Assembly: GCF_000020025.1 (NCBI RefSeq)
Contig: NC_010633.1
Span: 1-32,000, forward strand
Source of the DNA: Nostoc punctiforme PCC 73102
Lineage (GTDB): Bacteria; Cyanobacteriota; Cyanobacteriia; Cyanobacteriales; Nostocaceae
DNA length: 32,000 nucleotides
Reading direction: 5' to 3'
Positions 8,829 through 32,000 of this stretch are shown in pieces. The notes under the pieces are model-generated. The model saw nothing but the letters and a program-made list of their open reading frames with translations, was not told the origin of the DNA and ran no database searches. The translations under genes and the position numbers were made by a program. Position 1 is the stretch's first letter. Each line of letters opens with the position of its first letter.

Positions 8829-11800
8829 ATGACGGTTGAAGAAGCGATCGCACTAGTCGAGCAAGTATTGGAACGGGGACGCTTAACAAAAGTTCAAGAG
8901 ATTGTCTTCCGTCAATCATGGGCAGGACAGACGTACTTAGAGATGGCTGTAGACTGCGATTACAACCACAGTCACATCAAAGACGTTGGCTCTGAATTAT
9001 GGCGATCGCTCTCTCAAGCTTTAGGAGAAAAAGTTACCAAAAATAACCTGCACGGAGTACTGAAGCGAATCGCACAGGGACAAAAGGACACAAATGCCTC
9101 CTCAACCTTAAACCTTCAACCCTTCACAAACTGGGGGGAAGCAATTGACGTTTCTCAATTTTATGGACGTACTACTGAATTAGAAACCCTCAGCCAATGG
9201 ATTGTGAGAGATCGCTGTCGTGTAGTAACACTGCTAGGTATGGGTGGCATGGGCAAAACCGCACTCTCAGTGAAGTTAGCAGAACAATTGCAGGGAGAAT
9301 TTGAATATGTCATTTGGCGATCGCTGCGGCACGCACCTTTTTTTCAAGACAAACTGACAGACTGCATTAAAATCCTTTCTCATCAGCAAGTTACCACATT
9401 GCCCTCTGACCCTCATGAGCAAATTACCTGTTTAATCGAGTACCTCCGCAAATCTCGATGCTTGTTGATTCTGGATAATTTCGACACATTATTGCAGCAA
9501 GGTAAACAGACAGGCTGTTACCGTGAGGGCTACGAATCCTATGGCGAACTCTTGTGGCGATTGGGAGAAACACAGCATCAAAGCTGTGTCCTGCTCACCA
9601 GCCGAGAAAAACCTGCTGAAATTGCTGCCTTAGAAGGTGATGGTTTGCCAGTTCGTACCCTGGCTTTATCAGGATTAGAAGTCGCTGATGGACAAACAAT
9701 TTTGACACTCAAGGGTTTATCAGGCGCTGAAGACGAAACCCGCCAATTGGTTGAGTGTTACCGTGGTAATCCACTAGCTTTGAAAATTGCTGCCACCTCA
9801 ATTCGGGACTTATATGAAGGCAATATCGCTCGTTTTTTAACTGATGGCACAACTGTATTTAAGGGTATTGGCAATCTCCTAGAGCAGCAATTTAAAAGAC
9901 TCTCCACCAAGGAGCAGCAAATCATGTACTGGCTAGCAATTAATCGTGAGCCAGTTGTAGCTGCCGTGTTACAAGAAGATATTGTGCCAGCAGTTTCAAG
10001 GGCAAATTTACTAGAAGCGTTGGAGTCTTTGAGTTGGCGTTCCTTAATAGAAAAAAGTTTCGGTGGCTTTACTCAGCAACCTGTAGTTATGGAATACATG
10101 ACAGACCAACTTATTGAACAGGTTTGTCAAGAAATAATAAATTTTGAGATTCGCTTATTAAATTTATACGCTCTCATCAAAGCTAATGCTAAAGATTATA
10201 TTAGAGAAAGTCAAACTCACGTTATTTTAGAATCTTTATTAATTGGGTTACAAAGTAGATTAAATAACCCAGGAGAAATTGAATTAAAAATTCAACAATT
10301 AATTTTAAGATTACAAAAAGAAATTCCCGCTCAACCTGGATATGTATGTGGGAATTTGATTAATTTACTGCGACATTTGAAAGTAGATTTTACCAATTAC
10401 GATTTTTCTAATTTAACAATTTGGCAAGCTGATTTCCAAGGCACAAATTTAAATAAAGTAAATTTCACAGGTGCAAATATTAAGAAATCAGTTTTTACAG
10501 AATATTTAGCTAGTAGCCTTTGTGTTAAATTCAGCCCTGACGGAAAATTTTTAGTTAGTACCGATGCAAATGATGGCATTCATTTATGGAATATTGAAGG
10601 TTTAGCAGCGATACATTTAACGACTCTACAAGGACATCAAGCTTGGGTTTGGGACGCTAAGTTTAGTCCGAATGGTAAAGTCTTAGCAACTTGTAGTGAT
10701 GATGGTGTCATTAAAATATGGAATATTAATACTGGGAAATGTCATCATACTTTACAAGATGATTCCAAGCGTAGTTGGTCGATAAGCTTCAGTCCAGATG
10801 GAAAAATACTAGCAAGCGGTAGTGGAGACCACACTGTTAAACTTTGGGATATCAATACTGGGCAATTGTTGAAAGTATTAAAGGGACATATAAATATTGT
10901 CCGTCCAGTTATTTTTAGTTCAGATGGAAAAATTATTGCTAGTGGAAGTGAAGACCAAACTATCAAGATTTGGGATGTTGATAGTGGTGAATATTTGCAG
11001 ACTTTAGAAGGACACTTGGCACAAGTTTGGTCAGTTTCTTTGAGTGAAGATGGGAAGATACTAGCAAGTGGGAGTGCTGATAAAACAGTAAAACTTTGGG
11101 ATGTGAGTACGGGGGAATGTCGAACAACTTTACAAGGAAATCAAATTGATGGTGTTTGGTCAGTTAGCTTTAGTCCTAGTGGTGAGAGTGTTGTAGTTGC
11201 AGGTGAAGTACCTGTAATCAGTTTGTGGGATATCAAAACTGGCGAATGTATTCAAACCTTTTTAGGACATATAGGCCGTGTTTGGTCAGTTGCTTTCAGC
11301 CCCAATGGTAAAACTTTAGCAAGTGCAAGTGAAGATCAGAGCGTTAAGTTATGGGATGTGACTACAGGAAGATGTTTAAAAACCTTACAAGGATACTCAA
11401 GTCGTGTTTGGTGTGTAGCTGTTAACGCCAATGGTCAGTTATTAGCTGCAAATACAAACAAAACACTAAGAATATGGGATATTTCCACAGCTAAATGCAT
11501 ACATACTTTACATGGGCATACTCGTGAAATCTGTGGGACTGTTTTTAGTTCTCATGAAACAATCCTTGCTAGTGCTGGTGCAGATGGGACAATTCGCCTT
11601 TGGGATACGATTACAGGTAAATGCTTAAGAACTTTACAGGTAAACGGGTGGATACTCTCACTTGCTATGAGTCCTCAAGGAAATGCTTTAGCCACTGCTA
11701 ATACAGATACTATGGCTAAGATTTGGGATATCAAAACTGGGGAATGTATCAAGACTTTAGAGGGACATACTGGTTGGGTATTTTCTGTTGCCTGGAGTCC

Positions 11801-12377
11801 AAATGGACAATTTCTGGCTACTAGCAGCGATCGCTGCATTAAGTTATGGGATGTCAAAACATGGCAATGTATCAAGACTTTAGAGGCACATTCCGGTTGG
11901 GTATATTCACTAGATTGGAGTCCAGACGGTCAAACGTTACTCAGCGGCAGTTTTGACCTCAGCTTGAAATTATGGGATATCAATACAGGAAACTGTCAGC
12001 AAACTTTGCACGGACACACAAAAATAGTGTTAGGTGCAAAGTTTCATCCCCAAGGCAACATTATTGCCAGTACAGGTCAAGATGGAACGATAAAACTTTG
12101 GAACAGCAATACAGGAGAATGCCTGAGAACACTCATAGGACATGCAGATTGGATTTGGGCTATTGCCTTTCACCCCAACGGGCAAACCCTTGCTAGTGGC
12201 AGTCAAGATGAGACAATTAAGCTGTGGGATGTCGAAACAGGGGAGTGTTTGCAAACTTTGCGATCGCCCCGCCCCTACGAAGATATGAATATTGCAGGCA
12301 TTACAGGGTTAACCGCAGCCCAAAAAGCGACTCTAAAAGCGCTCGGAGCAGTAGAATCAGTTGCTACAGACGGTTAA
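8829..12377 (+). CDS. STAND-class P-loop NTPase (NACHT/NB-ARC-like) with N-terminal HTH, pentapeptide repeats and 14 WD40 repeats
   Basis: Walker A is [12 protein letters not shown] (nt ~9236-9262) and Walker B is CLLILDNFD. The N-terminal ~85 aa look like a LuxR/sigma-region-4-type HTH ([22 protein letters not shown]...[12 protein letters not shown]). Pentapeptide run: [30 protein letters not shown]. Fourteen units follow, each ending (L/I)W(D/N)xxTG, which would give two 7-bladed propellers. Confidence 0.92.
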
Positions 12378-12545: not shown

Positions 12546-13310
12546 ATGCGAACCTGCTCATCCATCTCCCTCTCCGGTGGACAGGGAAAAACAACCACTA
12601 TCTTCTTTACCTCACTGCTGCTAGCACGGCTTGGCTTACGAGTGTTGACTATCGACGCAGATCCACAAGCAAATCTGACTTTTTATTTAAATCACGAGGT
12701 AGACCCAAACCAGCCCAGCTTATTTGAAGTGCTAACTGGGCAAGTGACAACAGAAGATGGTATTTACCCTACCACCCATGAAAATCTATTTCTGATCCCA
12801 GCAGATAGGGGACTGTTTAAGGTTTCAGATTTCCTCAGTAGCAGTGGTACGGGAGCATTTATTCTCAAACTACGGCTCAAATCTGTAGCCAATATCTTTG
12901 ATTATGTCCTGATTGACGTACAACCATCGCGCTCCCAACTGTGCCTAACAGCAGTGGGAACGTCTGATTATGTCATCATCCCCGTCGAAGCCAACGTTAA
13001 AGGAACCAACAGCTTAATTGATACCCTGAGCTTCTTAACAGAACAAGCCAACTTAATGGCATTTACAGGCAGAGTATTAGGGATAGTTCCTTTTCGCGAT
13101 CGCTGGGTAGGAAATACCCAAACCTTAGAAGGCAGGCAAAATATTGAAGCGATGCGAGAGTTTGCTCTCGACATTCCAATTTTACCGAGCATCCGAGAGT
13201 CTGAGAAGTTTAAGAGTGCAATCCGACAAGGCAAGTTGTTGTCAGACCTGGGACAATCCGACCTGCAATATCCCTTTGAGCAAATTATTGAGGCGTTAAC
13301 TCATGAGTGA
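12546..13310 (+). CDS. parA: ParA/Soj-family partition ATPase
   Basis: Deviant Walker A is SLSGGQGKTTT. Other motifs: VLTIDADPQANLT and YVLIDVQPS (Walker B-like). The 254-aa size is typical. The gene overlaps the next ORF by 8 nt (ATGAGTGA). Confidence 0.88.
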   Translation: MRTCSSISLSGGQGKTTTIFFTSLLLARLGLRVLTIDADPQANLTFYLNHEVDPNQPSLFEVLTGQVTTEDGIYPTTHENLFLIPADRGLFKVSDFLSSSGTGAFILKLRLKSVANIFDYVLIDVQPSRSQLCLTAVGTSDYVIIPVEANVKGTNSLIDTLSFLTEQANLMAFTGRVLGIVPFRDRWVGNTQTLEGRQNIEAMREFALDIPILPSIRESEKFKSAIRQGKLLSDLGQSDLQYPFEQIIEALTHE

Positions 13311-13701
13311 TGCACTAGAGCGATTGAAGCAACGGAGCCGTCCTTCTGTCAAAAGTCGAGATACTTCGCTAAATTCTGGAAGTCCAGATACCTCGATATC
13401 TAGAAACCAAGAACCTCAGATACCTAATAATGACGAAAATCAGGCTACTATACCTAAACAGCCGTTGCAAACAAAGCAGAGTACGCTGCGGTTGGAGCAG
13501 GGAGTAAGCTCACGCCTACAAGAGGTGTGTCGGGAGAACGGCATTTGTCGAGAGGTTCTGATTGAAGCCATGTTTGAGTATTGTGAGGCAAATCCAGAAT
13601 TTCTCAGTGCAGTGTTATCTGAAGCGATAACGAAGAATGAGTACAGGCAACAAGTGGCAAATATGCGACGGGCGAAGTCGATGATGCAAAAGTTCTCTTA
13701 G
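13303..13701 (+). CDS. Small parA-coupled protein, putative centromere-binding partner (ParB/ParG functional analogue)
   Basis: The call rests on position and the 8-nt overlap with parA. The N-terminal half is disordered and Ser/Pro/Gln-rich, and the C-terminal half is helical. I recognise no family motif, so the function is inferred from context only. Confidence 0.6.
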   Translation: MSDALERLKQRSRPSVKSRDTSLNSGSPDTSISRNQEPQIPNNDENQATIPKQPLQTKQSTLRLEQGVSSRLQEVCRENGICREVLIEAMFEYCEANPEFLSAVLSEAITKNEYRQQVANMRRAKSMMQKFS

Positions 13702-23043: not shown

Positions 23044-23457
23044 CTATTTTTGCACTTCATTAAGCAAATATTGATCAATCCGCTCCCTCATGTGGTTTAG
23101 AGCCGATTGAATATCTGAGAATGCTTGCCTTTCTTGTGATACCATTTCTGATTGCGCGGGTACATATAATTCAGCCCAGTAGCAGTACAAGTATGGATCA
23201 AACCACACATCAATGATGCAGTCTCTATACCAACCTCGTGAATAGTATTTATCGATCTGTTCTTTCATGTAAGCTACAGCCGATTGAATATCTGAGAATG
23301 GTTGCCTTTGTTGCATCAACATTCTATTGCGTACCGGGGCATATAATTCAGCCAGGTAACATCTGCGCCTGTCATCACGCCAAACATCAATACTACAGCC
23401 TTTGTATTTCTCGGAGTGCTTTAAATCCTCGGACAACAAATCAATCATGGTGAACAC
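23044..23457 (-). CDS. Hypothetical protein built from two tandem ~59-aa repeats
   Basis: CSIDVWRDDRRRCYLAELYAPVRNRMLMQQRQPFSDIQSAVAYMKEQIDKYY aligns with CIIDVWFDPYLYCYWAELYVPAQSEMVSQERQAFSDIQSALNHMRERIDQYL. At DNA level AGCCGATTGAATATCTGAGAATG recurs at ~23101 and ~23278. The start may be the fourth codon (ATG at 23448). Confidence 0.7.
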   Translation of the reverse strand: MFTMIDLLSEDLKHSEKYKGCSIDVWRDDRRRCYLAELYAPVRNRMLMQQRQPFSDIQSAVAYMKEQIDKYYSRGWYRDCIIDVWFDPYLYCYWAELYVPAQSEMVSQERQAFSDIQSALNHMRERIDQYLLNEVQK

Positions 23458-23597
23458 CGTTTTGCTTATGAATAGCGGTCTTGATACCTAAGAGCGTAAA
23501 AGTTTCTCGTTTCTTTGATTACAAGTTTTAGCATTATTTATTCAATTATCTAATAAACTTAGGCTAATTGGAAAGCTGATTTCTTATTGATACTTCT

Positions 23598-23741
23598 GCC
23601 GTGGTTGTCCGCGATGCCGTAACCACGCCGTAGGCTACGACCTATACAGGGTATGAATTGCCGTGATTGCTGCCGGATGCCGTAGACACCCATTAAAGCC
23701 CGTAAAACAGACCTGATTCTCACCACGGCATTACGGCATTA
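23598..23741. repeat. Cluster of TGCCGTA-type 7-mers (direct and inverted) immediately 3' of the FtsK-like ATPase gene
   Basis: GCCGT cores occur at 23598, 23616 (aTGCCGTAa), 23627 (cGCCGTAg), 23659 (tTGCCGTGa) and 23679 (aTGCCGTAg), with GCCCGTAA at ~23698. Inverted tandem copies are cACGGCATTACGGCATTAcc (23724-23741). GTGGTT(23601-23606)/AACCAC(23621-23626) form a small hairpin around one copy. Confidence 0.65.
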
Positions 23742-23744
23742 CCT

Positions 23745-25568
23745 TCACCAATCAGGCAGAGAGTAGCTATCATTCCCATCAGGATTTACCTGATCAGTCT
23801 TAACTAATTCAGCTAACCCATCAATTAATTCTTGCTCTGAATAACCAGATAACCTGTCTGCTTTCTTCAAATCGCGTAATGTTTTTGGGGTTTTCGACTT
23901 CACATTCTGGAAGTATTCATAAATCTTTTTAGCCACCTCAGATAATGGTTTGGGATGTATCTGGTGAGCCGGACTTAAATTAAATTCCAGGTCAAATACT
24001 CTATCTAAATATTCCTGCTCCGAAGCAATCGGCTTGACTTGATTAGATAATTGTGGCATTAATGCCACAACAAAACCCCCAACAGAAGCAATCATCACTG
24101 GGCGTAAGTTTTGATAGGAGACTGTTTTTACTGACAAGTATTTAGATTTAATTTGCTCCCGCTCTTGTTTACCTGGAATAATGTCACCTCTATTTAAAAT
24201 CAACTCCAGTACCCCATAAGATTCTTGTTCCCTTCCGTTCTTGATATATCTGTTACCTAGCAACAATAAATTGAGACAGAGACGAGTTTGAGCGTCCATC
24301 TTTTCAATGCCCAATGCTGCCAGATTAAAAGACTGTAGGGAAGCAATAAACTTAGTGTTAAACTCTCGACCAATCAGCAGAACATCAAGCAATTTACTCC
24401 CATAATTCCAATCAGAGTAAAGCTTGCTTAATGAGTCAGCAATTACTAGCCAATCATCCAGAATTAGAATCAATGGTGGTAAGGATTCGCGCTTTGATTC
24501 TGGTAGTTGCTTACGCTTTTTGTACGAGGTGTAAAAGCGGTCAATGACTTCTTTAGCTAGGTCTGGGTTTTCCCCGTCAAAAACAATTACCCTTTCTTTC
24601 TCTCGCAAACCACAGAAACTATCATTCTTAGCACTAATTACCCAAATATCCGCGTTGGGGGAATCTGCAAGGATTTTCTCAATCAAATAATTGAGGGTTA
24701 CTGATTTACCGCTTCCCGGCGCGGCGACTAAAGCAGTGGAACTATCGGCTCTGGCTAGGGCTTGCAAAGTATTGAGGGCAAGAGCTTCTGATGGGTCAAG
24801 GCTAGTAGCAGTATTTTGTCCTAATGTCTGCTGTTGTTCCCCAGTAACTTTATCGTCACCCCTGGCGATATCCTGCATTGACTGCCCCGGTAATGCTGCG
24901 GCTGGTTGTCCAGTCGCCTGTTGCAGTTGCACCCGTGCTTCTGCCTCCGCCCTCAAACGTACCTGCTCTTGAAAGATGGCTAACTCTTGCGGTGTCATTT
25001 GTGACAATTGTGCTGCTCTTAGCCGTCGATTCTCTGACCATTGGTGAAACTCGTAGTCTAGTTGGGCGCTATATGCTTCCTTATGGAGCCTTAACCCGTA
25101 CCAAAGTTTAGAAATTAACCAATTGCTACGAATTTCTTCTTGAACAGAGGGCATTAGTTGCATTAATCGCCATTCCCTAGCTTTGGATAACCCATAAGCT
25201 CCACCAACCAATAGCACTGAAGCTAATCCCCACAAAGCCTTATCCGGGTTACTTGGTTCTATTATTCTTAAGCGGGTAGCTTTGGTAGGCAGGAAGTTAT
25301 CACGCTGAAACTCTGGGTTAGCTGGTGCATAAGAAGAGGCATAAAACTCCGATTCAGGCATTATGTAACGCTTGTTGGGAGTGCAGTACCTTTGCTGATT
25401 AACGGGTTTGGTGAGCGTTGAGGGGATGAAACAATATTCAACTAAACTAATCATCGTGCCAGTAAATGACTTTGCCCCACAAATTAACCCAATAGTTGCC
25501 AGCACCCCCACAGTAATATTGTTGGCTATTCCTGATCGTAAATAATCCTCAAACTGCTTACGTTTCAT
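23745..25568 (-). CDS. Membrane-anchored P-loop DNA-translocase-like ATPase (FtsK/SpoIIIE/TraB-like or T4 coupling-protein-like)
   Basis: N-terminal TM segments: ITVGVLATIGLICGA and ALWGLASVLLVGGAYGL. Walker A is LVAAPGSGKSVT and Walker B is PPLILILDDWLVIAD, followed by IGREFNTKFIASLQSF...RLCLNLLLLG (an FtsK/HerA-like arrangement). The C-terminal ~60 aa look like a winged helix (AKKIYEYFQNVKSKTPKTLRDLKKADRLSGYSEQELIDGLAELVK). I place the start at ATG 25568 because it overlaps the upstream stop (ATGA). The tracked 25637 start adds 23 poorly supported residues. Confidence 0.8.
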   Translation of the reverse strand: MKRKQFEDYLRSGIANNITVGVLATIGLICGAKSFTGTMISLVEYCFIPSTLTKPVNQQRYCTPNKRYIMPESEFYASSYAPANPEFQRDNFLPTKATRLRIIEPSNPDKALWGLASVLLVGGAYGLSKAREWRLMQLMPSVQEEIRSNWLISKLWYGLRLHKEAYSAQLDYEFHQWSENRRLRAAQLSQMTPQELAIFQEQVRLRAEAEARVQLQQATGQPAAALPGQSMQDIARGDDKVTGEQQQTLGQNTATSLDPSEALALNTLQALARADSSTALVAAPGSGKSVTLNYLIEKILADSPNADIWVISAKNDSFCGLREKERVIVFDGENPDLAKEVIDRFYTSYKKRKQLPESKRESLPPLILILDDWLVIADSLSKLYSDWNYGSKLLDVLLIGREFNTKFIASLQSFNLAALGIEKMDAQTRLCLNLLLLGNRYIKNGREQESYGVLELILNRGDIIPGKQEREQIKSKYLSVKTVSYQNLRPVMIASVGGFVVALMPQLSNQVKPIASEQEYLDRVFDLEFNLSPAHQIHPKPLSEVAKKIYEYFQNVKSKTPKTLRDLKKADRLSGYSEQELIDGLAELVKTDQVNPDGNDSYSLPDW

Positions 25569-26143
25569 TGGTTTGTCCCCCTCGCCATAGCTGCAAGCAA
25601 CAACACTCCCAATGCTGCCAACCCGATCATTAACCAAGGGGTATCAGTCTGGGGACTGGGCTTAACTTCGTACTGTCTTACTTCTGAATAGAACCTTGTC
25701 TTACCTGTCTTGGTCGCTCCTGACACAGCCCGATATTCATCAAACGCCACCCAAAGAGTTGCCCCTACGCTTGCAGTTTGGGCAGTCGCTACCAAAAAAT
25801 CTTTGTCAATGTGGATTTGTCCGTCGTAGTGAAGCTTGGTCAGGGTATTGGCGAAGAATAGCCCCAGTACAATGCTGCCCAATGTGCCAGAAGCCATTGC
25901 CCCAATTCCAAGAGTTGTGAGTAGGCTGACTCCAGCATTGGCGGTGAACACTCCCAAGAATGTAGCCAGTGCTTTGTTTAGCAGTTGTTTGTTACTGAAG
26001 ACATCACGAATGGATTGCTCTAACCGTTCGCCGTCTTCGCTCTCCGGGGTCGGTTTTTCTGAAGTAGTTTCACCCCAGAGCATTGGTGTGGACTGTTCAC
26101 TGGTGTTTTGGAACTGCGATAATAGGGAATCAATTTCATTCAT
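25565..26143 (-). CDS. Membrane protein (192 aa) translationally coupled to the ATPase
   Basis: Several TM segments: LATFLGVFTANAGVSLLTTLGIGAMASGTLGSIVLGLFFA, VGATLWVAF and WLMIGLAALGVLLLAAMA. I place the start at ATG 26143 (MNEIDSLL). The tracked extension to 26287 runs through a GC-rich inverted repeat. Confidence 0.7.
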   Translation of the reverse strand: MNEIDSLLSQFQNTSEQSTPMLWGETTSEKPTPESEDGERLEQSIRDVFSNKQLLNKALATFLGVFTANAGVSLLTTLGIGAMASGTLGSIVLGLFFANTLTKLHYDGQIHIDKDFLVATAQTASVGATLWVAFDEYRAVSGATKTGKTRFYSEVRQYEVKPSPQTDTPWLMIGLAALGVLLLAAMARGTNQ

Positions 26144-26169
26144 GTTTACCTCGCGTGGGTGAAACAGAA

Positions 26170-26344
26170 AAAGCCAGAGTCTAGAAGAGGCTTCGGGGCG
26201 GAGGGGCAGAGGGGCAGAGGAGAGGTTACAGTCCATTCCCCCTTGCACCCCTGCTTGCCCTAACGAAGAAACATCGGTTCCTAACAAGTTCCCCCCTGCT
26301 CCCCTGCACCTCTGCTCCCCTGCTCTCTTCTGTCTGCTGGCTTT
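26170..26344. repeat. GC-rich imperfect inverted repeat (~55-nt arms) between operon genes; dispersed-repeat or MITE-like
   Basis: The left arm is AAAGCCAG..AGAAGAG..GGGGCAGAGGGGCAGAGG (26170-~26225). The right arm is its approximate complement, CCTGCTCCCCTGCACCTCTGCTCCCCTGCTCTCTTCT..CTGGCTTT (~26291-26344). The 16-mer CCTCTGCTCCCCTGCT (26309-26324) recurs at 17049-17064. Confidence 0.6.
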
Positions 26345-26357
26345 CGACTAATTACGG

Positions 26358-27029
26358 TTAGATGCCCATGAAGTTGCGAAACCACTGCCCTACTCGGCTA
26401 ATCCCAGCAGTGCGCGAGTAATTGGGCTTGGGTATGCGGTCGGTTTTCGCTTCACTGCCGTTTGTCCACAGTGCGCTAGTTACCGCAGTTTCATAAGCGC
26501 GATCTGCTGCGTCTTGGGCTTCTGGCACTTTGTTAGAAGCTTTGATTAAATCAGCCTCATATTTTGCGATCGCCATCAAGTCGGCAGTAGCCCCAGATAT
26601 CTGAATCAAGGATGAGCGTTGCGCGTGACGGGTGGCCTCGGCAGTGGTGGCGTTGACGTGTTCCGCCTGCATTTCGGTCATCTCGTTCTTAAAACGCTGT
26701 TCTCCTGTCTTACTGGTGTTGATAGCTTTCAGGGTTTGCGTACCGTGCTTCTGGGTGAGTTGCACCAGTTCTGCATAGGCTTGGTTTATATCGCCTGTGG
26801 TTTCAATGATTTTCCGGTATACCTCCAAAGCTTTAGGCAGATTAGCCTTAGCTGTGTCAGACAGTCGCGCCATATCTGCAATTTTGGTGATTACCGTTTG
26901 GTCGCCAAGGAGGGCTTTGTTGAAGTCCGATTCTGAGACATCAAACAGTCTGCCCATTGCTCCTAACGTACCGGGGGCATTGTTGTGAATATGGTTTTTG
27001 AGTTTTGCTGCTCCGTAATTTCTAGCCAT
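26358..27029 (-). CDS. Hypothetical helical protein (223 aa)
   Basis: AGGAGAATAA precedes the ATG and overlaps the stop of the upstream gene (8-nt gap). No motif recognised. Confidence 0.7.
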   Translation of the reverse strand: MARNYGAAKLKNHIHNNAPGTLGAMGRLFDVSESDFNKALLGDQTVITKIADMARLSDTAKANLPKALEVYRKIIETTGDINQAYAELVQLTQKHGTQTLKAINTSKTGEQRFKNEMTEMQAEHVNATTAEATRHAQRSSLIQISGATADLMAIAKYEADLIKASNKVPEAQDAADRAYETAVTSALWTNGSEAKTDRIPKPNYSRTAGISRVGQWFRNFMGI

Positions 27030-27037
27030 TTATTCTC

Positions 27038-27481
27038 CTAATAAGGTATTAAGTCGTAGTCGATATCGCTGTCTGGCTGGGGCAATTCATCCCAGTAACC
27101 CATCTCTTCAAATCGGCTATAAATTCTCGTTGCTAGTTGCCGTATTGGATCATCAAAATCATCAGAGATTAAATCAAATCTGTTCTCACCAAATGCCAAG
27201 AGATTTGCAATGTCTGGGTCAATACCATTGCCCAAAAATTGACCAAATGCAGCAGAGTATGGATGGTCATCGATAGTTGAATGAGTTGCTAGAAATTCCG
27301 TCCCGGTGAAGGGTGGGTAATCTTCACTCTCGAATATTGGTGTGTCAAGTGCCTTAATATCTGCCTCAATCCTTGCTGCCCATTCTTCAGGATTTTCCGC
27401 TTTGAATTGCTGCTTTCTTAGGGCGGAGTCGGTCAGAGGTGATTTGCCCCAATCATTGGGATTTTTGTAGTCAAGTGTCAT
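27038..27481 (-). CDS. Highly acidic hypothetical protein (147 aa)
   Basis: Asp/Glu-rich throughout (ESEDYPP, DLISDDFDDP, PQPDSDIDYDLIPY). It sits in the operon. Confidence 0.7.
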   Translation of the reverse strand: MTLDYKNPNDWGKSPLTDSALRKQQFKAENPEEWAARIEADIKALDTPIFESEDYPPFTGTEFLATHSTIDDHPYSAAFGQFLGNGIDPDIANLLAFGENRFDLISDDFDDPIRQLATRIYSRFEEMGYWDELPQPDSDIDYDLIPY

Positions 27482-27601
27482 TTGTTAGAATCCTTAAGTA
27501 CAAATCGTTTTGCGGCGAGAGATACATCCTGATTAGGCGATCGCCAAGCTTGCCGGCAGATGCGATCGCTTCATCATCAGTTCTCACAAAACTCAACAAG
27601 T

Positions 27602-27772
27602 TCAAAAACCTCTCTCTGCACTTGGGTTTGGCTTAATTCTTTTCGTTTGCATGAGAGAGTCATTGAATATGAAAGGGGCATTGACTCGACAATTAGAGTG
27701 GTGGCTATAGCGCAGTTGTTGACCGCGAAATTCATACAAATGATGACGTTGCAAAGTTGTCGTTTCTAACAT
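27602..27772 (-). CDS. Possible small ORF (56 aa), not in the supplied track
   Basis: My own translation is MLETTTLQRHHLYEFRGQQLRYSHHSNCRVNAPFIFNDSLMQTKRIKPNPSAERGF. The ATG lies 7 nt after the stop of the upstream gene and is preceded by GAGGAA. Support is position only. Confidence 0.35.
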   Translation of the reverse strand: MLETTTLQRHHLYEFRGQQLRYSHHSNCRVNAPFIFNDSLMQTKRIKPNPSAERGF

Positions 27773-27779
27773 AAGTTCC

Positions 27780-28016
27780 TCAAACTTGGGAGTAGAATTC
27801 GATATTTAGGATTGCTTCGTGAATCTCCATCAAGGCTTGCACTGCATCACCCATTCTGAGGTCATTCGATGTACTGAACCTTTCGGAGGCTTCGATTTGC
27901 TTGTAATTGGGCGATGCTTGCACAAACCTAAGAGTCTGTTCGCAACCCAGGATAATAGTCATGATTTCGGTAGTCGTTAGCGATGCTTGTGTCTGCATGG
28001 TTTCGTGGTCGCTCAT
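27780..28016 (-). CDS. Small hypothetical protein (78 aa)
   Basis: The internal ATG at 28016 overlaps the stop of the upstream 74-aa gene (ATGA at 28013-28016). The upstream part of the tracked 183-aa ORF is Arg/His/Ser-rich out-of-frame shadow. Confidence 0.6.
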   Translation of the reverse strand: MSDHETMQTQASLTTTEIMTIILGCEQTLRFVQASPNYKQIEASERFSTSNDLRMGDAVQALMEIHEAILNIEFYSQV

Positions 28017-28237
28017 GATTTCTTTCCTTTTCTTTGAGCTTTGATTGGTGCGGTTGGCGCTTCTGGCTGACTCGGCTTCTGAAGTACATAGCTGATTGCA
28101 CCTGCACCCCCCACGGCTGCGGCGATGGTGAACATATTGTTTCTGCCAAGCTGCTGGACTCCGAAATAGCCAAAAGCGATCGCTGCTGCTGTTGCTCCAA
28201 TGCCTAAAAGCGTGTTCCTTAATGTGGTTCTGCTCAT
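28013..28237 (-). CDS. Small two-TM glycine-zipper membrane protein (74 aa)
   Basis: LLGIGATAAAIAFGYFGV and FTIAAAVGGAGAISYVL, followed by a basic tail KAQRKGKKS. ATGA overlaps occur at both ends (28234-28237 and 28013-28016). Confidence 0.7.
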   Translation of the reverse strand: MSRTTLRNTLLGIGATAAAIAFGYFGVQQLGRNNMFTIAAAVGGAGAISYVLQKPSQPEAPTAPIKAQRKGKKS

Positions 28238-28467
28238 GCTGCCCCCTTGAAATTAGTGACCATTGCGCTAAGTGCCGATTTATTGGGCTGTGTAGATTGC
28301 ACTGTTTCAACTTTGGGCGATGTTTGTACATTGCCGTGTTGAAAAATCAGCTTCTCTACACCTGCTGATAATGCTTGTGTTGGTGCATCTTGGGGTAAAT
28401 CAAAAATCTTGCACAATTCAATTACTGCTAGGTAGGAGATGGTTATACGCCGAGATTCGTAATTCAT
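28234..28467 (-). CDS. Small hypothetical protein (77 aa)
   Basis: It starts 3 nt after the stop of the actin-like gene, and its stop overlaps the next start. Confidence 0.6.
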   Translation of the reverse strand: MNYESRRITISYLAVIELCKIFDLPQDAPTQALSAGVEKLIFQHGNVQTSPKVETVQSTQPNKSALSAMVTNFKGAA

Positions 28468-28470
28468 TGA

Positions 28471-29586
28471 TTAAGCTCCTCTTGCAATTTGAGTTAATAG
28501 CTTCAACCCCAAAGCATTGATGAATTGGGGATTGTTCAAAATCACAAAACCTAAACCGGCTAGGTTTTGATCCACCACTGGCAGCGAAACACCCCCACCC
28601 CAGGCGACAAGGTATTTAGCGCGGTCTAGATAATTGCCAGCAGTCACAAAGTTGGCGAATTTCTCAATCCTGTTACTCCACCATTCATCCAAACTTTGGC
28701 TGTACTCGGTTTCAAACTTCTTACCTGTGAGGTGGTTGCCTCCATAAGTGAAAGTCCCTTCAAGAATTCCCTGGTTAACGAGGCTGGGCGAGTGTTTCAC
28801 ATCCTTGGACAACAGACTTACTCGGTCGTTTCGCTTGTCGAGAGATCCGGCAATCATGCTGTGCAGTTCACCGGCTCCACCTTCAATCAAGTGACGGTCA
28901 ATCACTGCACCACTGCCGTTGAACACGGTAATCAACCAAGTTGATGAACCGATATCGAGTGCGATCGCTAATTCTGAAGGGTCAAGAATTAGGGACGCTT
29001 CACCGAATAAACAATGGGCAATGCTGCCAAATCCTTCGGGGTAAATGCCTGCAACCGCGATGTCAACTGTCTTGGTGACAATGGAACGAGTTACAGGATG
29101 CAGATGCTCAAAGGTGTGAGTTCCTGAAACTCTGCGTTTAATCTCTTGTCCCCAGCGTTCGGGGTTATGGTTGCTCAAACTAATTGAAAGCTTGAACCCA
29201 TCGGGAATATTCAGAACTGCCAAATCTGCAAGGATGCTTTCTAGTGCTAGTTCTGCTTTTTTGGCTTTGTCCTCGTGTAACAGGGTGTGGTCACTTTGGG
29301 CTAGAGCCGCACTGCCCCAAAAGAATTGAACGTCTTTTAAGTCAAGACGCGAACCTTCTACATACCGAACCCATGCCCCATCTTTTGAGATGGTTTCGTG
29401 GTGCATGATGTTGCGGTTGCGAACAAGTGAATATGCGGCAGGCATCATGAGCGAAAAATCACCGATGATTGCCTTGCCATAACCTGCACCTGCGTCTTTA
29501 CCTCCAGTGAGGTCAGTTAGCCCGGATTTGGCTAACAAGTCTGCCTGAACTAGCCAATTTTTGGCATTGGAATATATAGCTGTCAT
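28471..29586 (-). CDS. Actin-fold (ParM/Alp-like) ATPase
   Basis: Phosphate-1 DAGAGYGK (DxGxxxxK), phosphate-2 IALDIGSSTWLITVF, GGAGELHSMIA, and adenosine motif LVAWGGGVSLP. 371 aa. Confidence 0.75.
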   Translation of the reverse strand: MTAIYSNAKNWLVQADLLAKSGLTDLTGGKDAGAGYGKAIIGDFSLMMPAAYSLVRNRNIMHHETISKDGAWVRYVEGSRLDLKDVQFFWGSAALAQSDHTLLHEDKAKKAELALESILADLAVLNIPDGFKLSISLSNHNPERWGQEIKRRVSGTHTFEHLHPVTRSIVTKTVDIAVAGIYPEGFGSIAHCLFGEASLILDPSELAIALDIGSSTWLITVFNGSGAVIDRHLIEGGAGELHSMIAGSLDKRNDRVSLLSKDVKHSPSLVNQGILEGTFTYGGNHLTGKKFETEYSQSLDEWWSNRIEKFANFVTAGNYLDRAKYLVAWGGGVSLPVVDQNLAGLGFVILNNPQFINALGLKLLTQIARGA

Positions 29587-29746
29587 GGTTCAGATGATTG
29601 TTAAAGTCTTAATTCTTCTGGCTTGGCGTTGATTTTTAGCTAAATCTAGACAAATCCAGATATCCAGTTAGGGGCAAGCCATAGCATCACTTTCTGGCTT
29701 CTATTGCCTTTGTTGGGTGACTGTTTTTGGCTGACAATTACATCAT

Positions 29747-29764
29747 ATCACATCATGATGTGAT
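29747..29764. promoter_or_regulatory. Perfect 18-bp palindrome, candidate operator or centromere site in the divergent promoter region
   Basis: ATCACATCATGATGTGAT is its own reverse complement. Extra TGTGAT / ATCA half-sites lie nearby (29784-29789 and 29741-29746). The site is between the actin-like gene (-) and the RHH gene (+). TTCTGGCTT occurs twice (29616-29624 and 29692-29700). Confidence 0.55.
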
Positions 29765-29807
29765 TTTAGATGATAAGATCGTATGTGATCGGACAAGAGA
29801 GCATATC

Positions 29808-30017
29808 ATGATGTCAGGTGAGCAAACGAGTTCTGACTTAATGAGCAAAAAGTTAAATGCAATTATTCCAGATGAAACTTGGGAGGCGCTAGAGCAAATT
29901 GCTAATGGAGAGATGAGGACTAAAAGCCAAATGGCAGCTATTCTGCTTGGTGAAGCGATCGCGGCTAGACGTGCTAAAAAATCAGAATCTCAGAAGCAGG
30001 AAAAACCAGAGGCATGA
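29808..30017 (+). CDS. Ribbon-helix-helix (CopG/ParR/Arc-like) DNA-binding protein
   Basis: KKLNAIIPDETWEALEQIANGEMRTKSQMAAILLGEAIAARR gives the beta-strand, helix, helix pattern of RHH proteins, followed by a basic tail. I prefer the ATG at 29808 over the tracked TTG at 29727, because the tracked start would put the palindrome inside the CDS. Confidence 0.65.
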   Translation: MMSGEQTSSDLMSKKLNAIIPDETWEALEQIANGEMRTKSQMAAILLGEAIAARRAKKSESQKQEKPEA

Positions 30018-30150: not shown

Positions 30151-30873
30151 ATGTTAGCTGTGAAAGACCCACATACCGATTTTCAACTCCCGCTGCATAA
30201 CGAAGCAGCATTAAAGTGGATTAGGGAGACGAAAAATTACCTGTCCACTGTTGCTCTAGCAGTTGGTGGTGCGGCGCTGGTATCTGGCAGCTTAATTAAT
30301 CCGGCTGCCTGGGCTGCTTTTGCACTGGCTTACAAACCGTTGGTGATCACTCAAAAACTTGCGCGGTTGGAAAAATTAACCGATCTACTTTTACAAGAGT
30401 TTAAAAGCGTTGGTATAGAAATCTTTCCATTTCCGGGAGGAGAGAAAAACCCTATTGACTTGTTTATTAGATTTCCACGAACAACTCACCTGTTTATCTC
30501 CATTCGTTCGATAGGAGATAGGGAGGTAGTCTACAACGAAGCCAGGGAAGCTTTACAACTCAGAAAGAAGGATAAGAATGGTTTGACAACCTGGAAACCT
30601 TGTCCACTGCTTGAGTTGGCTGATTACGAAAAGTGGCTTAACAAAAACAGAGACTTGTTCGCAATGTCATCCCGTGAAGCTACAAAAACCCCAACAGCAA
30701 AAGTTTTAGCCCTATGGCCTCCTACTAGAGCGGCTTCAAATCTCAATGAACATTTATATTCTTCCGTGGGAAGCATGAGAATTCTGGCTCTCAGGAGAAA
30801 AGGCACTATGTTTGTGATTCAAGAGGAGGAAGTAATCGAGTTTGTTAGGGCTTGGTTAGCCCAATACAAATAG
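30151..30873 (+). CDS. Hypothetical membrane-anchored protein (240 aa)
   Basis: TM region YLSTVALAVGGAALVSGSLINPAAWAAFALAY. The C-terminal globular part has a faint NERD/PD-(D/E)xK-like spacing (PIDLFIRF....FISIRSIGD), but it is non-canonical. Confidence 0.65.
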   Translation: MLAVKDPHTDFQLPLHNEAALKWIRETKNYLSTVALAVGGAALVSGSLINPAAWAAFALAYKPLVITQKLARLEKLTDLLLQEFKSVGIEIFPFPGGEKNPIDLFIRFPRTTHLFISIRSIGDREVVYNEAREALQLRKKDKNGLTTWKPCPLLELADYEKWLNKNRDLFAMSSREATKTPTAKVLALWPPTRAASNLNEHLYSSVGSMRILALRRKGTMFVIQEEEVIEFVRAWLAQYK

Positions 30874-31139: not shown

Positions 31140-31379
31140 GTGTCACAAAAAGAACTATCTCATACCTCAGCTACGAACAAGCTGCTATTCGCAACTAAAG
31201 CTAATCCCTGTCCTCACTGCGGTAAACCAGACTGGTGCTACTCAATAGGAGAATTTACAGTTTGTGATCGCGATCGCTTTTATCAGCCTAACTATGCACT
31301 GGCTCAACCGGAACAATCGCCAACTTATGTATTAAGCAATAGTCAAAAATTAAATAATGTTCAAGGAGGTATCGCGTAA
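31140..31379 (+). CDS. Small Zn-ribbon protein (79 aa), primase-N-terminus-like
   Basis: GTG start, 8 nt after GGAGGA (31126-31131). The motif CPHCGKPDWCYSIGEFTVCDR is a CxxC...C...C ribbon. The stop overlaps the next ATG (TAATG). Confidence 0.55.
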   Translation: MSQKELSHTSATNKLLFATKANPCPHCGKPDWCYSIGEFTVCDRDRFYQPNYALAQPEQSPTYVLSNSQKLNNVQGGIA

Positions 31380-32000
31380 TGGTTGCACAATTCTCCAATC
31401 AGCAAGCACTCGCCTCCTTTGATATTCGCAATTTTGTAGACCAGTTAGAACCAGCCAGAGAGAAAAATAAATACATCTGCCCAGTTTGCGGTGGGCATAA
31501 TTTATCCATTGTCCAAGAAACTGGGAAGTACAGCTGCTTTAACCAGTGTGAGTGCAAAGACATCCGGGAGGCGATTAAACCTTGGGCTGAAGTCTTAGCA
31601 GAAAGAGCAGGGGTTAATTATACAACTTCCCCAAAAGCGAAAATACCCAACCCCAAGAGAATCTTGCCCAAAAGTGCGCCAATTCCAGATGGTGAATTAG
31701 CACTGGTGATGTTGACCCAAGCGGCGACTGACATACCCCAAACTCAAAACATAACTTGCAAGCTACCAAAGGGAATACCAGGGAATGCAACACAAACAAT
31801 CTACCCTTACGGAAAAACCCAATGGGTAATTCGCTATGAATGGGCGGATTACATCAAAGAGAAGGGTTATGATAAGTCCTTCCGCCAATGGCACAGGCTT
31901 CCAGATGGCACTCCAGAGATGAGAAAAGGGGATGAACCCTGGAAAGCTTACCGCATTGATGAAGCAATTGCCTGTGCTAAATCAGTGAATGTCACCCCGG
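31379..32000 (+). CDS. Primase/replication-like protein with N-terminal Zn ribbon; partial, continues beyond the window
   Basis: This ORF is not in the track because it has no stop in the window. My translation is open from ATG 31379 to 32000 (MVAQFSNQQALASFDIRNF...). GGAGG lies at 31365-31369. The motif CPVCGGHNLSIVQETGKYSCFNQCEC resembles a primase CHC2-type finger. YPYGKTQWVIRYEW...KSFRQWHRLPDG...WKAYRIDEA resembles the DnaG/plasmid-primase N-terminal region. Confidence 0.7.
   Translation, partial: MVAQFSNQQALASFDIRNFVDQLEPAREKNKYICPVCGGHNLSIVQETGKYSCFNQCECKDIREAIKPWAEVLAERAGVNYTTSPKAKIPNPKRILPKSAPIPDGELALVMLTQAATDIPQTQNITCKLPKGIPGNATQTIYPYGKTQWVIRYEWADYIKEKGYDKSFRQWHRLPDGTPEMRKGDEPWKAYRIDEAIACAKSVNVTP

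Follow-up and report, generated by a model that had tools for sequence, protein, structure and literature searches.

A plasmid backbone operon of filamentous cyanobacteria links a predicted FtsK/HerA-type membrane ATPase to a covarying repeat array and may encode a sequence-directed DNA translocase

The first 32,000 nt of contig NC_010633.1 of Nostoc punctiforme PCC 73102, which we call the window and whose positions are used throughout, carry on the minus strand (23745-29586) an operon of eight or nine co-oriented genes, g1 to g9, some of which overlap by their open reading frame (ORF) coordinates. The operon starts with an actin-like ATPase gene, ends with the gene of a predicted membrane-anchored ATPase of the FtsK/HerA type, and is followed directly by an array of short repeats whose motif, from one relative to the next, covaries with the C-terminal half of that last ATPase. 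This arrangement suggests a plasmid DNA translocase that may find its substrate through a sequence label beside its own gene. An original prediction had singled out the region as a compact nine-gene operon that might serve DNA transfer or segregation; the order, strand and coordinates of its genes stand, while one of the nine is doubtful and the packing is uneven.

At the head of the operon lie g1 (29586-28471; 371 aa), for a ParM-family actin-like ATPase, and g2 (28467-28234; 77 aa), for a candidate ParR-like adaptor. They are followed by g3 (28237-28013; 74 aa), for a small glycine-rich membrane protein with a basic tail, g4 (28016-27780; 78 aa), for an acidic helical protein, and g5 (27772-27602; 56 aa), the doubtful gene, which is annotated in some relatives only and has 67-73% identity, compared with 82-96% for its neighbours. 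The product of g6 (27481-27038; 147 aa) is very acidic, with an isoelectric point (pI) of 4.1, and that of g7 (27029-26358; 223 aa) is a helical orphan of pI 9.2 with no predicted transmembrane helix. A membrane protein with three to four transmembrane segments by hydropathy is encoded by g8 (26143-25565; 192 aa), and the membrane-anchored ATPase by g9 (25568-23745; 607 aa); both genes start at internal ATGs within their longest ORFs. The earlier description of g6 as very acidic, g8 as multi-spanning and g3 as a small glycine-rich membrane peptide thus holds, as do the three ATGA overlaps (28234-28237, 28013-28016 and 25565-25568) and the short gaps claimed as 3-8 nt, which we find to be 3, 7 and 8 nt. 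The unevenness comes from two larger gaps, one of 120 nt separating g5 from g6 and one of 214 nt separating g7 from g8. Scanned as single sequences against Pfam, NCBIfam and PADLOC, none of the nine proteins gave anything above threshold; PHROGs gave significant matches for g1 and g4 only, and phmmer searches of g1 and g9 against the PDB returned nothing useful. A defence-system identity was rejected, the only match being a weak one to mad8 in the Walker A region.

The architecture of g9 was read from an AlphaFold2 (AF2) model built on an alignment of 32 family members (predicted local distance difference test score, pLDDT, 76), together with hydropathy. A transmembrane helix is predicted at about residues 14-36 (the helix of the model spans about 2-35), followed by a small loop domain of ~70 aa (residues 36-108) in which Cys46 and Cys62 are conserved, a second long, probably transmembrane helix from residue 110 (~110-131), a coiled coil (~140-219) and a disordered linker (219-253). 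Behind these come a compact alpha/beta ATPase domain of the FtsK/HerA type (255-510) and a winged-helix tail (540-607). In Foldseek comparisons with the PDB the model matched TcpA (6o1w; 4.6e-5, TM-score 0.43 on the target), EccC, FtsK (2ius, 6t8o), EssC and VirB4, with E values from 5e-5 to 5e-4. RecA-like KaiC was matched too, so that resolution within the class is limited, and an ORC match superposes poorly, with a root-mean-square deviation (rmsd) of 22 Å. A viral structure library returned A32-like and FtsK-like packaging ATPases. The best viral match is BFVD A0A482MIE7 (E 5e-14 over 452 columns), a still uncharacterised protein of 712 aa from Nodularia phage vB_NspS-kac65v161, whose host belongs to the Nostocales; a tblastn search of our phage collection with g9 was empty.

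Sequence motifs in the family agree with this fold. The Walker A residues G285, G287 and K288 show no variation, nor do R360 and R401, and S289 occurs in 31 of 32 members. The FtsK-HerA superfamily has a signature of a conserved Arg and then a strand ending in a polar sensor residue, 'R..hhhhTQ', and g9 has G-R401-E-x-N...hhh-x-L-Q412-S ('GRE..hhhh.Q'), with Gln at position 412 in 25 members and His in 7 (n=32). The Walker B strand is hydrophobic and ends in D372 (27 Asp, 5 Glu), the next residue being Trp in 27 of 32; conserved Glu residues, E402 and E357, lie outside it. The earlier description of g9 as a transmembrane-anchored FtsK/HerA-like P-loop ATPase therefore stands at the level of fold and Walker A; Walker B, which is without the usual Glu, is atypical.

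Domain libraries see this family poorly. The window protein scores 15.9 bits against DUF87, for which the Pfam cut-off is 23.2, and gives no match to PF01580. Among the 32 members, Pfam detects DUF87/HerA in 15 (best 2e-7), AAA_10 in 10 and FtsK_SpoIIIE in 5 (best 3e-4), all weakly, and in sets of 32 and 41 members it finds no VirD4, TraG or TrwB domain (T4SS-DNA_transf, TraG-D_C, TrwB). NCBIfam reports SXT_TraD in just 2 of 32 (3e-4). A family profile run against PDB sequences gave just Walker A-level matches (ABC transporters and the like), which are no evidence of relationship and were set aside. When 1.84 billion representative proteins were searched exhaustively with the profile, only 639 relatives were recovered at E<=1e-3; the profile thus stops short of the very large FtsK family, and g9, judged by these searches, belongs to a small, distinct family that Pfam misses. 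The model and these scans together place g9 among the FtsK/HerA-superfamily ATPases and apart from canonical VirD4 coupling proteins. The name 'type IV secretory system conjugative DNA transfer family protein', given to several g9 homologues by the Prokaryotic Genome Annotation Pipeline (PGAP), has no domain support, and a database label is corrected here.

A winged helix-turn-helix-like tail had also been proposed for g9, and the predicted structure bears this out. Modelled separately, the last 96 aa form a helix-strand-helix-helix-hairpin, and all top PDB matches of this model are winged-helix domains, the best being Z-alpha (1j75; TM-score 0.86, rmsd 1.4 Å). No specific match to the FtsK gamma domain was found in the PDB comparison. 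IclR and MarR helix-turn-helix models match some members of the family.

The array begins ~7 nt past the g9 stop, in the 142 bp just outside the span that had originally been considered (23597-23738, minus strand), and consists of seven copies of the core YACGGCR. Read along the operon strand, an inverted pair comes first (ACGGCA on the plus strand at 23725-23730 and 23733-23738) and is followed by five direct copies, at 23678-83, 23659-64, 23626-31, 23615-20 and 23597-602. The hexamer ACGGCA occurs at 19 sites in the window, where ~9.7 are expected over 32 kb, and 6 of the 19 fall inside the array, which leaves the rest of the window at background. A role as KOPS-like dispersed guidance sequence (KOPS, FtsK-orienting polar sequences) was ruled out on this ground, ACGGCA being near its expected frequency outside the array. 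Downstream of the array, at 23480-23540, lies a degenerate 5' remnant of a response-regulator gene; the gene itself follows the operon in pNPM5, p057_D, pCC7120delta and pNFSY01, and in the window an unrelated 137-aa ORF (23044-23457) replaces it.

Arrays occupy the same position in relatives, where the motif may be the same or entirely different. ACGGCA arrays lie 3' of the g9 homologue in pNPM5, p057_D and pCC7120gamma; the pCC7120gamma homologue is ~52% identical to g9, and there the spacers have wholly diverged while the motif copies are kept. On pCC7120delta and a plasmid of Nostoc HK-01 the layout is that of the window and the motif is AGACACC, so a single strain, PCC 7120, holds two motif classes. 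GTCCCGA arrays are found in Tolypothrix 7601 and Nostoc UHCC 0302, ATCCAAC arrays in Aulosira and others, and a TAGAACG array in Leptolyngbya; CTCACC, GGAACA, TCTGCA and GGTCAC are further array motifs. In all, at least nine different motifs occur at one position beside the ATPase gene, and the inverted-then-direct layout recurs in all four motif classes inspected.

We surveyed 79 further loci (labelled with L numbers below), and 85 loci could be scored. In most of the 85, one 6-mer is strongly enriched within the 230 nt that follow the ATPase stop. Compared with the other windows of its locus, this 230-nt stretch ranks first in repeat content in 47 of 77 cases and no lower than third in 58 of 77; among the windows ranked above it, several hold 10-16 copies of GC-rich hexamers, which look like repeat-protein coding DNA. 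Across 52 distinct ACGGCA-class regions the inverted pair falls at +0-20 and the direct copies at +60-90 and +110-150, with an invariant 7-bp core and variable flanks. Some loci depart from this layout. In Oscillatoria nigro-viridis pOSC7112.03 (L007, 10600-10850) ~9 copies of (T)GTCCGR lie inside the 3' part of the ATPase coding sequence, in the acidic linker ahead of the C-terminal domain. Strong arrays stand upstream of the ATPase gene in L075 (GGAACA, nine copies) and L065 (CGGAAC, ten copies), and a second repeat cluster, GACAGA in 6-7 copies, occurs 0.4-1 kb past the first array in L006 (10740-10970) and L014 (~10860).

The motif follows the C-terminal part of the ATPase. Clusters of the C-terminal 80 aa map one-to-one onto motif classes, with 53 of 53 for ACGGCA, 8 of 8 for ATCCAAC, 3 of 3 for AGACACC, 3 of 3 for GTCCCGA and 2 of 2 for CTCACC; clusters of the N-terminal part (transmembrane helices plus coiled coil) contain mixed motif classes. 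Natural chimeras separate the remaining genes from the motif. The pCC7120delta and HK-01 operons resemble the window in g7, g8 and the N-terminal ~300 residues of the ATPase, and have an unrelated C-terminal half. L006 has g1-g5 in common with the window at 67-92% identity (g1 91%, g2 92%) and a different motif, and L005 resembles the window in part of g6, again with a different motif. L002 and L008, conversely, have the window's motif without its g7, g8 and g9 N-terminus. These four chimeras (L002, L005, L006 and L008) exclude g1-g8 and the N-terminal part of g9 as the determinant of the motif. Within the ACGGCA class, PKTLRDLKKADRL..YSEQELI, which spans strand 1, helix 2, the turn and the start of helix 3, is conserved between proteins only 53% identical overall. 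That the g9 tail reads the array appears, from these comparisons, to be the most economical reading, and we propose the array as a cis-acting, clt-like recognition site for the tail.

Other assignments of the array were tried and ruled out. It is not the centromere of a ParR protein, since L006 has nearly the same g1-g2 pair and another motif, nor a set of replication iterons, since the replication (Rep) proteins of L001 and L002 are unrelated and the two loci have one motif in common. A response-regulator site is ruled out as well: the response-regulator gene has a near-identical 5' end beside ACGGCA and AGACACC arrays, and the window has lost the gene. One strain may carry the same motif class on up to five contigs (five in FACHB-838; L015, L016, L018 and L035 in Nostoc FACHB-892), which argues against a centromere-type incompatibility determinant and fits a translocation function that several replicons could use.

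Upstream of the ATPase gene, g7 and g8 appear to belong to the same module. The g8 stop overlaps the g9 start (ATGA), and in all ten relatives that were checked a 159-208-aa protein with three to four transmembrane-like segments and a basic C-terminal tail precedes the ATPase. The overlap with the ATPase start is 4 nt in most, 1 nt in L007 and 46 nt in L003, and in L011 the two genes abut; on a Calothrix plasmid (L012) a 93-aa ORF lies between them. g7 has no match in Pfam, NCBIfam or PADLOC, nor among PDB sequences, where profile searches were empty too, and its homologues are almost all cyanobacterial; a second sequence type found at its position is weakly related (hhalign probability 60%). 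In natural chimeras g7, g8 and the N-terminal part of g9 move as a unit, with the recombination joint in the disordered linker, which suggests one membrane sub-complex in which g7 is a candidate peripheral partner of g8 and the g9 N-terminus.

The spacer between g7 and g8 contains, at 26150-26345, an insert of ~175 nt with G-rich repeats (GCAGGGGAGCAGRGG) and their C-rich complement, which folds as a long hairpin (-84 kcal/mol, z -2.2). It is absent from pNPM5, whose spacer is only 73 nt. The repeat recurs in the equivalent spacer of L015, L029, L037, L039 and L047, while L003, L051 and L062 have it at other places; by its appearance it is a small dispersed Nostoc repeat or one resembling a miniature inverted-repeat transposable element (MITE).

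At the other end of the operon, the actin-like identity of g1 was correctly foreseen. The protein matches phrog_691 ('partition protein', 4e-12), and a profile of g1 and its positional counterparts finds ParMs of solved structure (1e-7 to 7e-7) and Anabaena CorM (6e-6). The family alignment has an invariant DxGxxT motif (D211, G213, T216) and an invariant GG pair (G330, G331) within a GGG stretch. While g1 of the window has no Pfam match, two divergent relatives, L008 and L010, exceed the cut-off of ALP_N, which L004 narrowly misses (24.7 vs 26.3 bits), the L003 actin-like protein passes the cut-offs of MreB-like_C and ParM_N, and relatives of g1 are annotated ParM/StbA. By these sequence criteria g1 is a ParM-family actin-like ATPase of a known kind. 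The idea of a cytomotive filament as part of the machine fares worse. g1 is an ordinary member of the ParM family and is swappable: in pCC7120gamma, pNPM4 and an Aulosira plasmid the operon begins with a ParM/Alp gene that has diverged strongly (25-31% identity), and the Tolypothrix PCC 7601, Oscillatoria and Calothrix operons have other proteins in first position and no ParM. In chimeras g1-g2, usually with g3-g5, are exchanged independently of g7-g9. Independent exchange, and absence from three versions of the operon, indicate a linked but dispensable cassette rather than a core part.

The small genes between these two ends offer fewer clues. g2 lies 3 nt past the g1 stop, covaries with g1 in chimeras and has an N-terminal strand-helix-helix pattern, and it matches no family in Pfam, NCBIfam or PHROGs; its position, small size and N-terminal pattern make it a candidate ParR-like adaptor for g1. 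g3 has one clear transmembrane-like segment and a second Gly/Ala-rich hydrophobic segment by hydropathy, and its match to the TcpD domain is sub-threshold only (0.0047). g4 matches phrog_31750, which is annotated as of unknown function, at 2e-17. L001, L002 and L008 have a conserved g6, and L005 shares part of it. Upstream of g1 there are no clear parC iterons in the class to which the window belongs. On pCC7120gamma (L003, 7400-7450) tandem iterons, ~3 copies each of a AATAGATCC unit and a ATTACATCC unit, lie upstream of ParM; they are a classic parC-like centromere, unlike what accompanies the ParM class of the window.

A divergent control region (29587-29807), with a palindrome and a leader, separates g1 from a ribbon-helix-helix (RHH) gene on the plus strand (29808-30017; 69 aa from the ATG at 29808), whose product matches PF07878 RHH_5 above cut-off (2.5e-6). 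The perfect 18-bp palindrome ATCACATCA|TGATGTGAT is at 29747-29764, with a partial second copy on the RHH-gene side (29802-29814). Its sequence varies between relatives, and the ~140-nt leader upstream of g1 is conserved. The small divergent gene at this position goes by the name 'copy number control protein' in pCC7120gamma, and in Nostoc UHCC 0302 its annotation is 'ParG'. The palindrome is probably the RHH operator, and the divergent protein likely represses the operon. Promoter and terminator scans gave nothing above chance.

The gene set is syntenic on many replicons, and its arrangement is no accident of this one. By megablast the operon is present on 30 plasmids of Nostoc, Tolypothrix and Microchaete, four of which cover 97% of it at 88-89% identity, and a tblastn search with g9 returns 34 plasmids, Oscillatoria and Leptolyngbya ones among them. 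The versions in these two genera are more distant, as are those in Coleofasciculus and on other cyanobacterial genome contigs, and the model strain PCC 7120 has the operon on two plasmids, pCC7120gamma and pCC7120delta. On complete plasmids it adjoins the small divergent RHH gene, a conserved gene of ~240 aa and a replication gene (CyRepA1 or another primase-like Rep). The window repeats that layout, with the RHH gene followed by a 240-aa ORF (30151-30873), an ORF of 79 aa and, from 31379, a Rep ORF cut off by the window end. The region is a backbone operon of a cyanobacterial plasmid family, mostly Nostocales replicons with CyRepA-type replication genes. The 79-aa ORF (31140-31382) is Cys-rich and conserved, its stop overlaps the Rep start (TAATG at 31379), and the same pair is annotated in p057_D. 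Contigs with the operon (L013, L053 and L076) also sit in bins labelled 'uncultured Acetobacteraceae', with a protein that matches the one in the window at 93% identity, and 'uncultured Saprospiraceae'; the Acetobacteraceae-binned one, at least, seems to be a Nostoc plasmid contig that was binned wrongly in a lichen metagenome.

The original prediction had named, as the case that would tell against it, a canonical type IV coupling protein with a full type IV secretion system (T4SS) and relaxase close by. g9 has no VirD4-family Pfam match, and on pNPM5, a complete relative of 41 kb, neither a T4SS nor a relaxase is annotated; some other carriers do have genes of this kind. In the window itself no VirB4, VirB6, relaxase or pilin Pfam family was found among the mid-sized ORFs, as had been said, with two giant and several small ORFs lying outside the scan. 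MOB-suite types the 34 carriers as 14 mobilizable, 8 conjugative and 12 non-mobilizable; the relaxosome genes MobV and MobC are found on p057_D and pNFSY01, respectively, and the relaxase type differs among carriers (MOBV, MOBP, MOBF) while the operon is constant. In pNFSY01 (L093, 21195-24574) mobC is followed by ~3 kb without a listed gene. The PLSDB table may have left out a relaxase pseudogene here, and this would bear on how far a 'non-mobilizable' typing can be trusted.

Elsewhere in the window a second partition system (12546-13701) consists of a ParA-type ATPase (AAA_31, 6e-34) and an overlapping 132-aa gene; other carrier plasmids, too, have ParA-type systems as well as ParM. Two large cargo genes can be described from their translations: a 2495-aa protein (1128-8615) that contains a duplicated block of ~170 aa and has calcium-binding repeats of the GGxGxD type towards its C-terminus, and a 1182-aa P-loop NTPase (8829-12377) with a long array of WD40 repeats.

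We propose a model where the operon holds two separable modules, a ParM/ParR-type partition cassette (g1-g2, with g3-g5 alongside) and a DNA-handling machine made of g7, g8, g9 and the array. The two N-terminal helices would hold g9 in the cytoplasmic membrane, and its FtsK/HerA-type ATPase domain would probably form a ring, by analogy with FtsK, TraB and TcpA. g8, translationally coupled to g9, and g7 would probably build a membrane complex with the N-terminal part of the ATPase. The C-terminal winged helix would probably recognise the YACGGCA array beside its own gene and, once loaded there, g9 would pump double-stranded plasmid DNA through or along the membrane, with the divergent RHH protein probably acting as operon repressor. 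The reading we favour, with a probability of roughly 0.55, is that g7, g8, g9 and the array form a plasmid DNA translocase directed by sequence, in the manner of TraB/clt or FtsK/KOPS, with two partners associated with the membrane. What such a machine would be for is less certain. We tentatively suggest cell-to-cell transfer or spread of the plasmid, at clearly less than even odds. A bolder and rather doubtful extension would make this the first TraB-like double-stranded DNA transfer system without T4SS and relaxase outside the Actinobacteria. In it a single membrane translocase, loaded on an array specific to the plasmid, would together with g7 and g8 move whole plasmids between adjacent cells of a filament or between contacting filaments, with interchangeable winged-helix/array pairs as address labels. 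Passage of plasmids through septa is pure conjecture.

Several observations weigh against a sequence-directed translocase. Walker B is without its usual catalytic Glu, so that robust ATPase activity is not assured, and g9 of the window has no above-cut-off match to FtsK_SpoIIIE, TraB or DUF87. Helix 3 of the predicted winged helix is acidic and hydrophobic, and winged helices can also act as protein-binding modules. The array lies less than 150 bp from the DNA that encodes the C-terminus, and linkage in recombination contributes to the covariation; a few loci have no strong post-stop array (L069, L073, L075, L088), and in L007 and L075 the array is located elsewhere. Some relatives carry MobV or MobC genes. 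The hosts, moreover, are diderm cyanobacteria, in which a single inner-membrane pump with a periplasmic loop of ~70 aa would seem to have no obvious route across two envelopes.

Two other accounts we regard as unlikely. g9 could be an unusual FtsK/TcpA-like type IV coupling protein for single-stranded DNA that a relaxase mobilises through a T4SS encoded elsewhere (for example of the cyanobacterial MPF_C type), an atypical component serving an apparatus supplied in trans; the array would then be part of a region resembling an origin of transfer (oriT), or a docking site by which the plasmid reaches the coupling protein. TcpA of pCW3 is indeed the best well-superposed solved-structure match of g9, the N-terminal layout with two transmembrane helices is typical of the class, several homologues bear the PGAP name of a type IV secretory conjugative transfer protein, and pCC7120gamma encodes a large DUF87 protein as well. 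The mobilizable (14/34) and conjugative (8/34) carriers, and the MobV and MobC genes of p057_D and pNFSY01, keep mobilisation via a T4SS in trans in play. These points are opposed by the 12 of 34 carriers typed as non-mobilizable, by pNPM5 with neither relaxase nor T4SS annotated, by the constancy of the operon while the relaxase type changes, and by the lack of VirD4, TraG or TrwB matches in Pfam or NCBIfam among the 32 family members. We know of no coupling protein with a specificity-swapping winged helix and a cognate array after its own gene, a feature characteristic of TraB and FtsK. Alternatively, g9 could serve vertical inheritance, by tethering the plasmid to membrane or septum via the array or by clearing a closing septum as SpoIIIE and FtsK do, in cooperation with ParMR; as a purpose of the machine, too, septal clearing or tethering seems to us improbable, on a par with service to a T4SS. 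Such a role would suit the linkage to ParM-like heads that is kept even where these are very different (L003, L004, L008, L010), the place of the operon beside the replication gene in the plasmid backbone, the fold relationship to FtsK and SpoIIIE, and the fact that envelope-spanning components are not evident. It sits badly with one motif on several co-resident replicons, which is awkward for a centromere-like determinant, and with the clustering of ACGGCA at one locus at near-expected frequency elsewhere, unlike KOPS or SRS guidance (SRS, SpoIIIE recognition sequences). The plasmids, furthermore, already have ParA-type and ParM systems, and ParM is absent altogether from three versions of the operon.

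Far less probable is that the array has nothing to do with the ATPase, being instead a set of iterons, the site of another regulator (response regulator, ParR or RHH protein) or a dispersed Nostoc repeat, and that g9 has some other substrate. Physical linkage alone could yield an association of C-terminus and motif, and Nostoc genomes are rich in short repeats, one of which sits in the g7-g8 spacer; yet the motif is independent of Rep, the response regulator and g1-g8, at least nine motifs hold their position by the ATPase gene with an invariant core and drifting flanks, and the Oscillatoria array lies inside the 3' part of the ATPase coding sequence. We give almost no credence to a plasmid-prophage or capsid-less virus remnant in which g9 would be an FtsK/HerA-type packaging ATPase and the array its packaging (pac) site. 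The structural matches to A32-like packaging ATPases and to the Nodularia phage protein, and the PHROG families matched by g1 and g4, would speak for it. However, no capsid, portal or other virion gene is annotated on the complete carriers examined or found among the window ORFs scanned with Pfam, g9 has N-terminal transmembrane helices and a coiled coil and no capsid-docking domain, and the phage collection (50,697 records) contains no DNA match to the operon and no protein match to g9 by tblastn. A phage origin of the operon was ruled out on the absence of any match in that collection.

Beyond the assignment of single genes, a sequence-directed translocase would matter for what carries it. 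The spread and persistence of the many plasmids of filamentous cyanobacteria are essentially unknown, and the operon is candidate machinery for these processes on dozens of Nostocales plasmids. Full-text searches on cyanobacterial TraB/FtsK-like plasmid systems, PCC 7120 plasmids and Nostoc plasmid backbones turned up no account of the operon or its arrays. The ParM part is known; what may be new, by analogy, is a site-directed translocase of the TraB/FtsK style in a phylum new to such systems, together with a protein family not recognised before, new partners and diversified tail/array pairs. If the winged-helix/array pairs are real address labels, they would let plasmids tell self from other DNA, and they would constitute a natural set of orthogonal protein-DNA recognition pairs, which could help to build transferable or stably inherited cyanobacterial vectors. 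Because PCC 7120 carries the operon on two plasmids of different motif classes, pCC7120gamma (ACGGCA) and pCC7120delta (AGACACC), the hypothesis is directly testable in a genetic model.

Among known systems, the ParMRC cassettes (R1, pSK41, the Clostridium ParMs) and CorMR resemble the head of the operon in the actin-fold motifs and profile matches of g1 and in the small gene right after it, and pCC7120gamma has parC-like tandem iterons upstream of ParM as they do. They differ in that g1 heads a 6-kb operon ending in a translocase gene and in that g2 has no ParR family match. A preprint on CorMR noted ParM clades in cyanobacteria whose function is unknown. TcpA of Clostridium perfringens pCW3 is similar to g9 in fold (6o1w), in its two N-terminal transmembrane helices and in being plasmid-borne; TcpA, however, acts with a VirB4/VirB6-type apparatus and a relaxase, none of which is linked to g9, and we know of no winged-helix tail or cognate array for it. 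Like g9, TdtA of Thermus thermophilus ICEth1 is encoded on a mobile element of a diderm bacterium; it is a hexameric DNA translocase of the cytoplasmic membrane that pushes DNA out without a T4SS (PMC5365140). Unlike what we propose here, TdtA serves generalised DNA donation with nucleases, uptake proceeds via the competence system of the recipient, and the abstract describes no cognate site array (PMC5365140). In a 2012 survey of conjugation ATPases, TraB homologues came from Actinobacteria only and TcpA homologues from Firmicutes only, and nothing was known experimentally of the cyanobacterial type of T4SS (PMC3548315).

FtsK and SpoIIIE are membrane-anchored ATPases of the superfamily to which the fold matches of g9 point (2ius, 6t8o), and the pairings of FtsK-gamma with KOPS and of SpoIIIE with SRS combine, as we predict for g9, a C-terminal winged helix with a short oriented DNA motif. 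In those systems the motif is dispersed and skewed along the chromosome, whereas that of g9 is clustered at one plasmid locus, and the ATPase part of g9, at ~255 aa, is more compact than that of FtsK. The closest parallel may be Streptomyces TraB. This FtsK-like translocase is encoded on plasmids, binds 8-bp direct repeats in clt through its C-terminus, moves double-stranded plasmid DNA without processing it and acts together with Spd proteins, which are small and membrane-bound (PMC4447253). Compared with TraB, g9 has no detectable sequence homology, PF01580 missing the window protein, and it resides in a diderm cyanobacterium; its N-terminus has two transmembrane helices, a Cys-containing loop and a long coiled coil, and its Walker B is without the Glu. 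The Nostoc motif is 6-7 bp with an inverted pair ahead of the direct copies, unlike clt. No relatives of g7 and g8, the possible counterparts of the Spd proteins, are detectable among known families or solved structures. What the Nostoc operon and the TraB/clt systems (pSVH1, pSG5, pIJ101) have in common is a plasmid-borne membrane FtsK-like ATPase with a C-terminal DNA-recognition domain, predicted in g9, and short repeats that are clustered at or beyond the 3' end of the gene encoding the ATPase and differ between plasmids. In both, genes for small membrane and coiled-coil proteins stand beside the ATPase gene, overlapping in the Nostoc operon, and a repressor gene accompanies them; traR of TraB plasmids is divergently transcribed, as is the RHH gene here. 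TraB requires no T4SS, and the resemblance to it, part of the original prediction, is strengthened by a clt-like array that directly follows g9 and covaries in motif with the C-terminal half of the ATPase.

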